From contig JBMFRB010000005.1 in NCBI GenBank assembly GCA_049968255.1, positions 165,822-229,821 of the forward strand: a stretch of DNA of 64,000 nucleotides. Reading direction: 5' to 3'. Shown piece after piece: positions 55,886 to 60,640 of the stretch (position 1 is the stretch's first letter; the number at the start of each line of letters is the position of its first letter). Position numbers and translations under genes: made by a program. The notes beneath the pieces were generated by a model. It was given only the letters and a program-made list of their open reading frames with translations. It searched no databases and was not told the origin of the DNA. The DNA comes from Candidatus Sumerlaeaceae bacterium (GTDB lineage: Bacteria; Sumerlaeota; Sumerlaeia; Sumerlaeales; Sumerlaeaceae).

Positions 55886-56389
55886 ATGCCAAAAAAGCGT
55901 CCCGATATAACCGAATCGCTGTTTTACGACAAGTACTACGTGATCAAGAAATCGCGCGCTCAGATGCTGGCCCAGGAAGCCATCCGCCAGCTCACCGAGG
56001 AGATGGGACCGTCCGACGGACCTATTGAAATCGTGGACATTCTTGAGCGGATGTGCGCGATTCAAGGTAAACAGTACTTTTGCCTCAATCTGGACGAAGA
56101 GGCGAGCCTGAAAGCGATGAAAACGTACTACACCGCCAAATATGACCGCGAGACCGCCGAGGCGTGCCTTGAGTATATCATGAAGAAGGAAGTTGGGCGC
56201 GAAGTTGTGTTCAAAGGCAAGTGCCTTGTGCGCGGCCGCGTGATTGATGTGTGGCATCATCCCGATGGCGGCAAAGTTTTTGAAGTGAAAGACAAAGAGG
56301 GACAACAATACACGGTGCCCGAGAGCTGGGTGGTGAAGTGGCTGGAGACAGAACCCAACCAGCAGTCCGACACTCAGCAGTCGCAGTAG
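55886..56389 (+). CDS. Hypothetical cytoplasmic protein (helical N-part, possible small beta-barrel C-part)
   Basis: AAGGTG RBS and protein-like composition; no family recognised. Confidence 0.7.
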   Translation: MPKKRPDITESLFYDKYYVIKKSRAQMLAQEAIRQLTEEMGPSDGPIEIVDILERMCAIQGKQYFCLNLDEEASLKAMKTYYTAKYDRETAEACLEYIMKKEVGREVVFKGKCLVRGRVIDVWHHPDGGKVFEVKDKEGQQYTVPESWVVKWLETEPNQQSDTQQSQ

Positions 56390-56526: not shown

Positions 56527-58017
56527 ATGATGAAAACATTGCCCAAATGTTGTTCTAATTTTGCATCGCGCTTACACCGACTTTTGCGAATGTCCTTGCT
56601 AGCCGTCCTTGCACTCGTGGCGTTGCGGGCAAGCGCCGCCGAGTATCGGATGCTGTGGGTGGACGTCTTTCATCCTGGCCTGCGCACGCCGCAAGAGATT
56701 GACACGATGCTCGCGATGGCGCGCCAGGCGAATTTCAATGCGGTCCTTGTGCAGATGCGCAAAGCGTGCGACGCATTTTACGACTCGCAAATTGAGCCCA
56801 AGAACGAAGCCCTTCGCGCAGATTTTGACCCGCTGGCCTATCTTTTGAATCAAGCCCACGACACCTCGGGCGGCAAAAAACCGATCGAGGTGCACGCTTG
56901 GATTGTGGCCTATCGCTGCCGCATCCCTGGCGACAACACGTGGAAAAATCCGCACCACGTGTTTCAGCGCCATCCCGAATGGCTAAGCCAGACCTACGAT
57001 GGTGCAAAGGAAGACCGCGGAGAAAATCCGGGACGCTATTATCTCGACCCTGGGGTGCCCGCGGTAATCGACTATAATATCGCTGTTATTCGCGACCTCG
57101 TCTCGCGCTATCCTGTGGACGGCATCCATTTTGATTATATCCGCTACCCAGAAAGCGAAGGAAGCGGAAACGTTTGGGGGTATAACCCTCTGGCCGTGGC
57201 GCGGTTTAATCGGCTCTATGGCCGATCGGGAAAGCCGGCACCGAATGATCCTGCGTGGGGCGACTTCCGCCGACGCCAGGTTTTTCACATGGTGCGGCGC
57301 GCCTACGTGGAGGCACACGCCATCCGGCCGGCCATCAAAGTCTCGGCAGCCACCATTGCCTGGGGAAGCATCGGCAGCGATTTTTCACGTACCGATGCCT
57401 ATGCGCGGATTTTCCAGGATTGGCCAGCCATGCTTGAAACAGGCATGCTCGATATCGCCATTCCGATGAATTATAAACGTGAGAGTGTAGCGGCTCAGGC
57501 AGCCGCTCACCGTGCGTGGGCCACCTTTCTCGCCCGGACAGCAAGCGCCGCAGGCCGCTTTGGCGTAAATGGCGTAGATGGGGAAACTCTCAACACGCTC
57601 AACGATGTGCTGGCACAAATGAAGGCGACACGCTCGATGAGAGGTCTGGCGGGGCTGGCCAACTACTGTTATGCTGAAACGCGCAAGGGCTCGCCGCCCC
57701 CGCCGGATGTTGAGTTTTTTTCTGCCATCCGTTCACAACTCTATAGCAAATGGACACTTCCCCCTCAAGCGACTTGGCTTGTCAATCCGCGCAGCGGCAT
57801 CGTGTCCGGGACTGTGACCAAAGCTGGCCGTCCGGCTGACGGCGTGGTCGTTCGCCTCTCGACGGGGGAGGAAACTTACACCGACGGTTCTGGATTTTTT
57901 GCTTTCTGTGGGGTGCGGCCGGGCACAGTCGAGGTGAAAGCTGACGGAGCAGAAAAAGCGCAAAGTGTAAGTGTGAGAGCGGGCGCAGTGGCACAGCTAC
58001 CACTGAGTTTGCACTAA
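56527..58017 (+). CDS. Exported GHL10 (DUF187/YddW-like) glycoside hydrolase with carboxypeptidase-regulatory-like domain
   Basis: R.LWV, FDPL, EVHAW, HPEW, LDPG.P.V, YPVDGIHFDYIRYP and QDWP. Start approximate (GGAG RBS). Confidence 0.88.
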   Translation: MMKTLPKCCSNFASRLHRLLRMSLLAVLALVALRASAAEYRMLWVDVFHPGLRTPQEIDTMLAMARQANFNAVLVQMRKACDAFYDSQIEPKNEALRADFDPLAYLLNQAHDTSGGKKPIEVHAWIVAYRCRIPGDNTWKNPHHVFQRHPEWLSQTYDGAKEDRGENPGRYYLDPGVPAVIDYNIAVIRDLVSRYPVDGIHFDYIRYPESEGSGNVWGYNPLAVARFNRLYGRSGKPAPNDPAWGDFRRRQVFHMVRRAYVEAHAIRPAIKVSAATIAWGSIGSDFSRTDAYARIFQDWPAMLETGMLDIAIPMNYKRESVAAQAAAHRAWATFLARTASAAGRFGVNGVDGETLNTLNDVLAQMKATRSMRGLAGLANYCYAETRKGSPPPPDVEFFSAIRSQLYSKWTLPPQATWLVNPRSGIVSGTVTKAGRPADGVVVRLSTGEETYTDGSGFFAFCGVRPGTVEVKADGAEKAQSVSVRAGAVAQLPLSLH

Positions 58018-58109
58018 GAAGCAGAAGAACGCAAAGATAGCTGTCGTTTACCAGGGAGGACTCCACTTTCGCTTGCCGGACCAAACATCGGCGTTGAAGG
58101 AATGAGGGC

Positions 58110-59678
58110 GTGACGTCGTCAGCCTCACTATCACTTTCGGATGCTGCTTTCGTAGAGAAGCTAAAATCGGCGCTATGGGATTTGAGTGCCGAGGTTCGCG
58201 AGACCTTGCCCGTGTTAGCAGCCCGCGGAGCAGCTTGGCCAGAAATCGGCATTGATCTGATTCGGGAAGAACTTGTGGCGGTGGTGTGTGATCAATGGCC
58301 AGCCCTGATTCCGACAAGGCGGCGTCGAGCGGCGCAGATCGTCGCTCAGTGGATGCGGGAGCATCACGTGGCTAAGCTACGCGCTCAGGAGGAGGAAAAC
58401 ACATACGCGGATTTGGCGGCTAAACCAAGTGGCAGCCCAACAACCTCGCTGCGTCGCGATTGTCTGGCTGATTCGAAAGGTTCGTCCCCTAGGCAAAAAC
58501 GACTTGCTCAGCTGCGTGAATTCTGCCTGTCGGCTGACGAGGTCTCAAGATTTCGGGATTCATTGGCAACGGCAAAAACTATGGACGACGCGCTGGCTAC
58601 TGTGCACAAAACGTTTGTCTGGCTTACGCCACACCGCGCTGCGCTCTTTTTGCGCGCGGTGGGATACCCCCTGGCCCACGCATGGAGTAAATCAGTTACA
58701 TTTCTAACAAGATTAGGACGGTGGGGGGATCTTGCGCGTTGCGAGAACGTAACCCTGGCATACCGAGATTCGGTCTGCCAACTTGCTCATTGTCACGAGT
58801 ATCCGGTAGGGGCTGTAGACTTTCTCATCGCAGCCTACAGCGGAGCTTGGCGCGTCGAGGACATGAGGCCCATATGCTCGTCAACAAAGCCGCGATGCTG
58901 CGCGTGCGTCTTTCGGGGAGAGTGCCACTTTGCATCTACGGATGCTGGAAAAAAGGTGGCGCAGCGCCGACCGGTCCGCGACTGGGTGACAAGCGAGCGA
59001 CCCCGGGAGCGGCTTCTCCACGGCAAGGAGCTGAGCGATGGCGAGCTGCTAGCAATTGTGTTGCGGACGGGAAGTGGTGAGCTCTCCGCTGTTGAACTTG
59101 CAAAACGGATCCTCGAAGTAACGAACGGAAGTCTTTACCAACTCCTGCGCCTGTCGCCATACCAACTCATTGAGCGATTGCGCGCCATTGGCGTGAAAGG
59201 CGTGGGCACGGCCAAAGCAGCCGAGATAAAGGCCGCTCTGGAACTTGGAGCGCGGGCGCTGAGCAGCGAAAGGGACGAGCGCACAAAACTTGGCGAACCG
59301 CTCACACGCAGCCGAAATGTCTTCGAGCGCTATCGCGCACTTTACGCCGGGCGTGCTCAGGAAGAATTTCGCATGCTCATCCTCGACACCAAGCATCGTG
59401 TGGTACGTGATGCCGTGGTGTCGCGTGGGACGCTCGACGCGAGCATCGTCCATCCTCGTGACGTCTTTCGCCTAGCCATTGAACACACGGCCGGTGCTGT
59501 GATCTTCATTCACAATCACCCCAGCGGCGATCCGACGCCGAGCCGAGAGGACAGAACTCTCACTCAACGGTTAGTGGAAGCGGGACAACTGTTGGGGATT
59601 CGCGTGCTTGACCATGTGATTATTGGTGCGCAATCGTATTACAGTTTTGCCGACCAGGGAGAAATTGGCACAAAATGA
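58110..59678 (+). CDS. radC: RadC/JAB (UPF0758) protein with long N-terminal EndoIII-like [4Fe-4S] extension
   Basis: ERPRERLL, LSD.ELLAI.LRTG, GVG.AKA, EEF, HPRDVF, HNHPSGDPTPS.ED and LDHVIIG; about 285 extra N-terminal aa ending in C-X6-C-X2-C-X5-C. Confidence 0.9.
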   Translation: MTSSASLSLSDAAFVEKLKSALWDLSAEVRETLPVLAARGAAWPEIGIDLIREELVAVVCDQWPALIPTRRRRAAQIVAQWMREHHVAKLRAQEEENTYADLAAKPSGSPTTSLRRDCLADSKGSSPRQKRLAQLREFCLSADEVSRFRDSLATAKTMDDALATVHKTFVWLTPHRAALFLRAVGYPLAHAWSKSVTFLTRLGRWGDLARCENVTLAYRDSVCQLAHCHEYPVGAVDFLIAAYSGAWRVEDMRPICSSTKPRCCACVFRGECHFASTDAGKKVAQRRPVRDWVTSERPRERLLHGKELSDGELLAIVLRTGSGELSAVELAKRILEVTNGSLYQLLRLSPYQLIERLRAIGVKGVGTAKAAEIKAALELGARALSSERDERTKLGEPLTRSRNVFERYRALYAGRAQEEFRMLILDTKHRVVRDAVVSRGTLDASIVHPRDVFRLAIEHTAGAVIFIHNHPSGDPTPSREDRTLTQRLVEAGQLLGIRVLDHVIIGAQSYYSFADQGEIGTK

Positions 59679-60640
59679 CGGCAAGCCCGGTTCTGAAGCT
59701 GAATAATCTGACAAAGCGTTTCGGGCAGATTTTAGCCGTCAACAGGCTGTCGTTTGAAGTTTACGAGGGCGACATTTTTGGCTTTCTTGGGCCCAACGGT
59801 GCAGGGAAATCCACGACGCTTTACATGATTGCTGGGCTCGTGCATCCAACAAGCGGCACGATTGAGGTGCTAGGCCAGCCGCACACGAATTATCGGCATG
59901 TGCGGTCCCGGGTGGGGATGCTCATCGAGGTGCCTGCGTTTTATGAGCATCTGAGCGCCCGGAAGAATCTCGAAGTTTTGGGGCGGCTCCACGTCGGTCT
60001 TCCTCCAACTCGGTTTGACGAGGTCCTTGAGCGCGTCGGATTGCTTGATCGTGCCGATGATTTGGTGCGCGAATTCTCCCACGGCATGAAACAGCGCTTA
60101 GGCCTTGCCCAGACTTTGCTGCACAGACCGCGGCTCCTGCTGTTGGACGAGCCCACAAGCGGGCTCGACCCTGAAGGGAGCGTTTCGATCTGGAAGCTTC
60201 TGCGCAGCTTGGTCGCTGAGGAAAAAATCACCGTGTTTGTCTCGAGCCATCTTTTGCACGAGGTGGAAGAGAACTGCAACCGGATCGCTGTCATCAACCA
60301 GGGTGTGCTTGTGGCCTGCGACGAAGTGCGCAAGCTGCTCTTCTTTTCCAAGGAAGATTTTTTGCTCATGTTTGAAGACCCCAGCGTGCGGGCTCAGGCA
60401 GAAATTTATCTGCGTTCGCGCGAGGGCATCGAGATTTTCGCAGCACCACCGCAGGACACACAGGCGGCGTCGCTGCTGGGTGAAGATACTGTGTGGATTC
60501 GGACGAAGCACGGTCTGATGCCGACACTCTTAGCGGAGCTCGTGGAACGAAAGCTCACTCCGCGTGCGGTGATTCCGCAACGCAAAACCTTGCGCCAATT
60601 TTTCTTCGAGCTGACTCGACGCCAGCCATCAGCGCGTTAG
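59675..60640 (+). CDS. ABC-2/multidrug-type ABC transporter ATP-binding protein
   Basis: GPNGAGKST, FSHGMKQR, LDEPTSGLDP and SSHLL; ATGA overlap with radC. Confidence 0.92.
   Translation: MTASPVLKLNNLTKRFGQILAVNRLSFEVYEGDIFGFLGPNGAGKSTTLYMIAGLVHPTSGTIEVLGQPHTNYRHVRSRVGMLIEVPAFYEHLSARKNLEVLGRLHVGLPPTRFDEVLERVGLLDRADDLVREFSHGMKQRLGLAQTLLHRPRLLLLDEPTSGLDPEGSVSIWKLLRSLVAEEKITVFVSSHLLHEVEENCNRIAVINQGVLVACDEVRKLLFFSKEDFLLMFEDPSVRAQAEIYLRSREGIEIFAAPPQDTQAASLLGEDTVWIRTKHGLMPTLLAELVERKLTPRAVIPQRKTLRQFFFELTRRQPSAR

Follow-up and report, generated by a model that had tools for sequence, protein, structure and literature searches.

The stretch of DNA analysed here, the window, comprises 64,000 nucleotides of a Candidatus Sumerlaeaceae bacterium (assembly GCA_049968255.1, contig JBMFRB010000005.1, positions 165,822 to 229,821 of the forward strand) and carries a RadC gene with an unusual N-terminal extension. 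An original prediction, made from the sequence alone, had described a 522-residue open reading frame (ORF) in which RadC is preceded by about 290 additional residues, and profile comparisons with Pfam and NCBIfam gave the same result. The RadC part (residues 289-518) exceeds every curated cut-off of these collections, with 151.1 bits for the JAB domain PF04002 (cut-off 22.1), 67.1 bits for the N-domain PF20582 (cut-off 27.1) and 221.1 bits for the NCBIfam RadC equivalog NF000642 (cut-off 180), which covers residues 299-518. As RadC family models span 212-218 positions, the fusion protein is about 290 residues longer than ordinary RadC. The JAB motif, which had been described as intact, is complete, with E418, H468, H470, S478 and D481 all present. 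The GTG of the gene is the first start codon of its frame, 4 codons past the preceding stop, and the closest public homologue (P0003, from Candidatus Sumerlaeota) has an ATG at the equivalent position. Matches to PADLOC and PHROGs profiles were confined to the JAB part of the protein. The window's protein is absent from the ESM Atlas, and a homologue present there (P0006) produced no usable match. The gene is the sole RadC gene in this genome, which is 95.75 % complete. Coordinates of all features are given in Table 1.

Table 1. Features of the RadC fusion gene and the gene that follows it, as positions within the window (aa, residues of the fusion protein; HhH, helix-hairpin-helix; FeS, iron-sulfur; EndoIII, endonuclease III; OGG, 8-oxoguanine glycosylase; dN/dS, ratio of nonsynonymous to synonymous substitution rates).
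Feature	Position	Strand	Remarks
RadC fusion gene	58110..59678	+	522 aa; N-terminal extension plus RadC; GTG start, TGA stop
Conserved N-terminal region, orphan (aa 1-86)	58110..58367	+	motifs ID..E..R..L and P.GRR..R
Variable, poorly alignable linker or insertion (aa 87-140)	58368..58529	+	gappy alignment
HhH-GPD-like core closing with the putative FeS-cluster loop (aa 141-275)	58530..58934	+	PDB profile matches, hhalign, dN/dS ~0.10
Degenerate HhH, Gly/Pro loop and helix (aa 172-203, LTPHRAALFLRAVGYPLAHAWSKSVTFLTRLG)	58623..58718	+	aligned to 'LPGVGRKTANVVL...PGITVDTHVGRVAQRLG' of Nth
W192 (TGG), at the catalytic-Asp position of EndoIII/OGG	58683..58685	+	program alignments
Predicted [4Fe-4S] cluster loop with K-P-R turn, C256-x6-C263-x2-C266-x5-C272	58875..58925	+	Cys conservation, loop alignment
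UPF0758_N, HhH-bearing N-domain of ordinary RadC (aa 289-371)	58974..59222	+	Pfam E 1.5e-18
RadC-type JAB domain (aa 399-517)	59304..59660	+	Pfam E 1.7e-44
JAMM motif H468-x-H470...S478..D481, E418 upstream	59511-59552	+	JAMM residues present
ABC-transporter ATPase gene	59675-60640		ATG shares 4 nt with the end of the RadC fusion gene (ATGA)

The fusion is real and a single gene, and it is conserved across Candidatus Sumerlaeota. P0003 has 521 residues, is collinear with the fusion protein throughout and shares 63 % identity with it over the extension. A single-sequence search gave a match in 23 of 41 related genomes, each within an open frame of 493-581 residues (1118 residues once). It had been proposed that the architecture be sought in relatives, and a profile of 23 extension sequences matched 70 of the 75 genomes of the phylum, including 41 of the 43 high-quality ones. 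Two of the matched genomes hold no full copy, the match consisting of the cluster loop of Nth (endonuclease III) only in G010 and of a 74-residue fragment in G023. From the remaining 68 genomes 70 loci were fetched, G063 and G069 contributing two copies each; in both cases the two full fused copies lie on separate contigs (L060 and L068 in G063, L039 and L053 in G069). The cysteine motif of the extension is borne by 69 of the 70 loci, and in 66 of these 69 a single open frame also contains the JAB motif H.HP.G, which is not so in L036, L043 (a frame without the JAB part) and L049 (which meets a contig end). In L036 (G067) the JAB motif is degenerate and reads HNQPSG, the second His being replaced by Gln. 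The L072 copy (G033, contig C84) is interrupted by a TAA stop and broken into several short frames, and L058 (G051, contig C304) shows a frame break within the extension; sequencing errors or pseudogenes are possible in both cases. The five genomes of the phylum without a match to the extension also lack a complete RadC, with RadC matches that are weak or none. In G014 RadC is truncated at a contig start, and G041, which belongs to the other class of the phylum, has the same fusion, broken by a run of N.

None of the RadC matches of the phylum was a long-form RadC lacking the extension. Further strong matches lie in frames of 147-229 residues, shorter than the long form would require, or are cut at contig ends, and two short RadC proteins that were read (G010, L105:1381-1881, and G020, L106:763-1407) are JAB-only and without UPF0758_N. 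Short RadC-like frames are present as extra copies also in G003, G018, G042 and G043. The JAB-only gene of G010 adjoins an ORF that, by look only, resembles an antirestriction gene of the ArdC type and may point to a mobile element. In most Sumerlaeota genomes weak PF04002 matches (about 21-31 bits, mostly at model positions ~66-95) occur in frames of about 870-1150 residues, for example at G006:C1:1640343-1640432 and G008:C47:106707-106934, with none in G000. An exhaustive single-sequence protein search returned nine matches, all of 399-554 residues; the 399-residue match comes from a 1958-nt contig and its cluster mate has 488 residues. No stand-alone extension was found with a 64-sequence profile when 8000 word-sharing candidates with lengths of 110-730 residues were scored. 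The credible matches of the word-sharing searches, whether with the single sequence or with the 64-sequence profile, were the window's protein and P0003, and P0013, which matched the profile with 7 % coverage, was regarded as spurious. Where public names are given, the fusion proteins are called 'DNA repair protein RadC' or 'hypothetical protein'. The fusion of this extension to RadC is so far seen in one poorly studied phylum.

The extension is under purifying selection. In comparison with the 63 %-identical homologue, dN/dS was about 0.04 for residues 2-86, about 0.10 for residues 141-290 and about 0.02 for RadC, ratios that are only rough because dS is saturated; for the region of residues 1-86, the value of about 0.04 is the one against L002. 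The linker of residues 87-140 is nearly unconstrained against the same homologue (28 % identity; proportion of nonsynonymous differences, pN, 0.54). Within the genus, the most conserved part of the extension is the orphan segment of residues 9-86, and in the 69-sequence alignment E16 is kept in 59 and R72 in 64 rows (gaps included). The JAMM residues are retained in the relatives as well (E418 in 69/69, H468 in 67/67, H470 in 66/67 and D481 in 67/67), and UPF0758_N begins 24-37 residues past the fourth cysteine.

Alignments of the extension family, one of 30 full-length sequences and one of 69 sequences, gave the core consensus L.G.RA..FL...GYP.AVPD....RFL.RLG ... LLGLFSGA ... C..(K/R)P(R/K)C..CP....C.Y, in which L172 (64 of 69), L181 (65 of 69), R201 and G203 (66 of 69 each) are kept. 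The original prediction had aligned part of this core by eye with HhH-GPD glycosylases, and it is the same segment that the programs align. A single-sequence search of the PDB had the cluster loop of ROS1 as its sole match (E 0.16). With the 23-sequence profile, HhH-GPD glycosylases occupied 39 of 43 rows at E<=10, with EndoIII as the best (E 5.5e-4); with the 64-sequence profile they took up the top 18 rows and, overall, 37 of the 46 at E<=1. The highest-ranking match of the latter search was the archaeal-type OGG 9o00 (E 3e-5), profile positions 106-217 being aligned with residues 88-191 of a chain of 203; as it ends 12 residues before the chain end, this match excludes the Cys loop. EndoIII 8a5c followed at E 3.5e-5, matching the cluster loop plus a weaker HhH-GPD stretch. 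At E<=1 the Pfam model EndIII_4Fe-2S matched 35 of 64 relatives, with 4e-4 as the lowest E value, the window's own sequence remaining unmatched. When compared by hhalign, the extension family aligned with the genome's own Nth (85.8 %, E 5e-6, 81 columns) and with an alignment of 28 Sumerlaeota Nth sequences (95.4 %, E 1.7e-8), reversed decoys giving E values of 0.04-0.55; the confident stretch comprises 85 columns and runs from the Gly/Pro loop through the end of the Cys loop. The predicted homology to HhH-GPD proteins is well supported by these profile comparisons, for about residues 120-275 only.

The segment CSSTKPRCCACVFRGEC (residues 256-272) reads exactly C-x6-C-x2-C-x5-C, as had been reported, and is no chance pattern. 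The four cysteines, whose conservation in homologues had been named as decisive, are kept in 69, 68, 69 and 69 of 69 relatives, respectively, and P261 in 68 of 69. At least one Lys or Arg lies between the first and the second Cys in 62 of 69 loops, and the loop aligns with those of EndoIII, MutY and ROS1. In L019 (G036) a Tyr replaces the second cluster Cys. The Cys loop of Nth and MutY binds a [4Fe-4S] cluster and offers basic residues to the DNA backbone; by analogy, the loop of the extension would bind a [4Fe-4S] cluster as well.

In every program alignment the D of the family motif GYP.AVPD sits on the catalytic Asp of EndoIII and OGG. The window reads GYPLAHAW at this place, with W192 on the Asp of 'VDTH' in Nth, and therefore has the Gly/Pro loop without the Asp, whereas the consensus of the wider family has both (D 41 plus E 14 of 68 residues). 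Over the 69 copies this column contains D (41), E (14), S (6), W (2), one each of T, H, A, R and L, and one gap. An acidic residue is found in only 1 of 11 copies of the window's GTDB family (f1) as opposed to 54 of 57 copies elsewhere; besides W192, nine other f1 copies have W, T, H, S, A, R, S, S and L. The original prediction that the catalytic Asp is lacking was correct for this protein and fails as a general trait, Asp or Glu being kept in most of the phylum, and judging from the aligned column its loss is lineage-specific and confined to f1. Position 175 aligns with the Lys of Nth (within GVGRKTA in the Nth of this genome) and of OGG; the family has a hydrophobic residue there, and the window a His. 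Given this hydrophobic residue, no member of the family resembles a bifunctional lyase. When RadC divergence was matched, core identity in f1 was 0.31 compared to 0.37, and 0.37 compared to 0.44, in other families, a purely descriptive comparison in view of the non-independence of the pairs; this somewhat higher divergence suggests relaxed constraint. Outside the window, a MutY-like gene of the same genome (L026:1327-2466, contig C2 of G000) encodes TVETN where Nth has TVDTH (BLASTP), i.e. a Glu at the Asp position, as do 14 RadC-extension copies.

With moderate confidence, we propose from these sequence features that the extension is an FeS-containing, HhH-GPD-derived DNA-binding module which is non-catalytic in this lineage and targets RadC. 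In an ancestor of the phylum, the housekeeping RadC would have been joined at its N-terminus to a strongly diverged protein of the HhH-GPD/endonuclease III superfamily, the core of which would retain the Gly/Pro loop and the following helix of the glycosylase active-site region together with the four-cysteine [4Fe-4S] loop. The protein would be held on duplex DNA by the degenerate HhH and by the cluster loop, whose K-P-R turn is basic, and the extension may bind at damaged or unpaired bases and sense lesions. Once bound to DNA, the extension would place the HhH-JAB metallohydrolase of RadC on its nucleic-acid substrate. In view of the non-acidic residue at the Asp position (W192) and the missing Schiff-base Lys, the module most likely binds without cutting a base. 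Most other Sumerlaeota have retained Asp or Glu, so that the ancestral module may once have acted as a monofunctional glycosylase, or may do so even now. The genome also has canonical Nth and MutY as separate genes, and Nth was found in 71 of the 75 genomes of the phylum; the extension would therefore add a function and not replace one.

Several observations weigh against this proposal. At E<=1 no Pfam family matched the window's own extension (residues 1-288), and PF00730 (HhH-GPD) is absent from the 25 Pfam families listed for 64 relatives, no PF00730 match reaching the gathering threshold. When the Cys loop was cut from both sides, the hhalign comparison with Nth fell to 8.8 % (E 0.004, 29 confident columns), so that the FeS loop and one motif make up most of the signal against Nth. 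Residues 1-140 gave E 0.38 in the comparison with Nth, as did the orphan region against the N-terminal half of Nth, and the N-terminal 92 residues alone gave chance-level PDB and scattered Pfam matches (best PDB match interleukin-21, E 0.01). The HhH pattern of the family is L-x-G-h-[RK]-A-x-x-F-L, with G174 in 41 of 69 rows and the second Gly lost; the G-h-G hairpin is thus half kept (L-x-G-h-[RK]), and the window reads L-T-P-H-R. The spacing of the cysteines, which had been called canonical for EndoIII, is so in the window (x6 between the first two) and is not in 65 of 69 relatives, where it is C-x5-C-x2-C-x5-C; the x6 spacing occurs in four of the 69 copies (L001, L002, L003 and L073). Inspection of the locus revealed no repair gene among the neighbours of the fusion, GHL10 being encoded upstream and an ABC ATPase, then DUF4432 and a GT2 glycosyltransferase, downstream. 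The ABC ATPase is the sole recurring neighbour; among the 23 loci compared (L001-L023) it was present in 9, every one from family f1, and the neighbouring genes offer no functional clue.

Antisense frames at the locus that seemed conserved were rejected as shadows of the fusion gene itself. An ORF of 167 residues at 55886-56389 belongs to no Pfam family, and an ORF of equal length is present at the matching place in a locus of a related metagenome-assembled genome (L027).

To the idea that the fusion is an artefact, either a misassembled gene pair or an ordinary RadC translated from an internal GTG behind an open non-coding stretch, we give almost no credence. In-frame GTG codons do exist at residues 283 and 293, just ahead of the RadC part; the sequence 5' of them is, however, conserved at the protein level with low dN/dS, and an internal start at either codon was therefore rejected. 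Two separate ORFs joined by an assembly error, a danger already recognised in the original prediction, were likewise rejected as relatives show one ORF, the same long frame recurring across independent assemblies in 66 of 69 copies. Contigs of the public DNA run X1 cover 58000-59392 with gaps (0.60 of the sequence words) and show zero differences, and one of 423 nt bridges 58682-59104 without differences, but as X1 may be the window's own source it adds no independent support. No RNA run containing the sequence was found, and a further run, X2, yielded no aligned piece. We consider it highly unlikely that the extension is still an active glycosylase here, which would use another acidic residue or water-activating arrangement and make the fusion a two-enzyme repair protein. 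Such an activity would be in keeping with the Asp or Glu at the catalytic position in 54 of 57 copies outside f1, with the Glu of the MutY-like gene, which indicates that the phylum tolerates acidic variants, and with the purifying selection on the core in this lineage. It is difficult to reconcile with the non-acidic residues of 10 of 11 f1 copies, among which no single replacement residue prevails, with the more diverged f1 core (non-independent pairs, as stated above) and with the absence of a Lys at the Lys position of Nth.

Unlikely, too, is a role of the extension not in DNA lesions but as a Cys4 metal domain (FeS or Zn), be it structural, redox- or iron-sensing or protein-binding, that would regulate RadC and whose likeness to EndoIII would be a remnant, or a convergence in the cluster loop and one helix. 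Such a domain could explain why the similarity to Nth becomes marginal without the Cys loop (E 0.004 compared to 0.2-0.55 for decoys), why residues 1-140 have no detectable relative and the orphan residues 9-86 are the best conserved within the genus, and why the HhH hairpin is degenerate. However, OGG chains match about 105 residues at E 3e-5 without any Cys loop, and over 85 confidently aligned columns the extension shares with Nth the order and spacing of HhH-like helix, Gly/Pro loop, Asp, helices and Cys loop. Moreover, an acidic residue at the exact catalytic position in so many non-f1 copies would not be needed by a pure metal-binding remnant. A wider reading, which we offer tentatively and regard as rather unlikely, takes the fusion as a Rosetta stone that assigns RadC to base-excision repair. 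The N-terminal module of most Sumerlaeota would be a working monofunctional FeS glycosylase of a new subfamily, whose product (an abasic site, a blocked DNA end or a protein-DNA adduct) would be processed by the JAB domain within one polypeptide. The family of the window would then retain the module purely as a damage-recognition handle, and, if this were true, the stand-alone RadC of other bacteria would act after separate glycosylases.

With Nth and MutY the extension shares the four-cysteine cluster loop, including its basic x-P-[RK] turn, and, over the 85 confident columns, a collinear Gly/Pro loop with a helix closing in R..RLG. It differs from them in the missing PF00730 match, the degenerate hairpin, the lack of a Schiff-base Lys, the Asp-to-Trp change in the window, the x5 first spacing of 65/69 relatives, the N-terminal half that cannot be aligned (E 0.38) and the fusion to RadC, whereas the canonical Nth and MutY of this genome are separate genes. 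Archaeal-type 8-oxoguanine glycosylase/AP (apurinic/apyrimidinic) lyases (9o00/9o02; also 3n0u, 3knt and 3fhf/3fhg) provide the best PDB match to the HhH-GPD segment, and the consensus 'd' of the extension falls on the Asp of the chain. Unlike the extension, these enzymes are stand-alone, contribute no Cys loop to the match and have a Lys in their HhH where the extension family has a hydrophobic residue. Residues 289-518, with the JAMM motif intact, are those of an ordinary RadC (UPF0758; NF000642/TIGR00608; PF20582 plus PF04002), from which the fusion differs by its additional N-terminal residues. Both halves come from known superfamilies, and their combination is what is new.

The RadC fusions described in the publications consulted are to HhH, ArdC, a DnaG-like primase and a DinG/RAD3 helicase (Iyer et al. 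2011, PMC3239186; PMC5512222). Several of the published fusions occur in mobile elements (PMC3239186), whereas that of the Sumerlaeota concerns the RadC of the chromosome, throughout the phylum. The passages on RadC in PMC3239186 mention neither an HhH-GPD nor an FeS fusion, and the supplementary lists of that paper may bear on the point. A literature search likewise gave no description of a RadC-HhH-GPD, RadC-EndoIII or RadC-FeS fusion, although the supplementary architecture lists of PMC3239186 and PMC5512222 might contain one. The same two sources state that the name RadC derives from a disputed genetic result and that a nucleic-acid-processing role of RadC has been predicted from its fusions by comparative analysis (PMC3239186; PMC5512222).

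The extension described here defines a diverged HhH-GPD subfamily that goes undetected by Pfam. To our knowledge, few bacterial proteins that lack a demonstrated biochemical activity are as widespread as RadC. A RadC that is fused throughout a phylum to a relative of base-damage glycosylases provides a substrate hypothesis for it, namely duplex DNA at lesions or abasic sites, and the Asp- or Glu-bearing orthologues form a natural comparison pair with the Trp-bearing protein of the window. As a clean, phylum-wide Rosetta-stone clue to RadC function, the fusion hints that RadC works on DNA damage.

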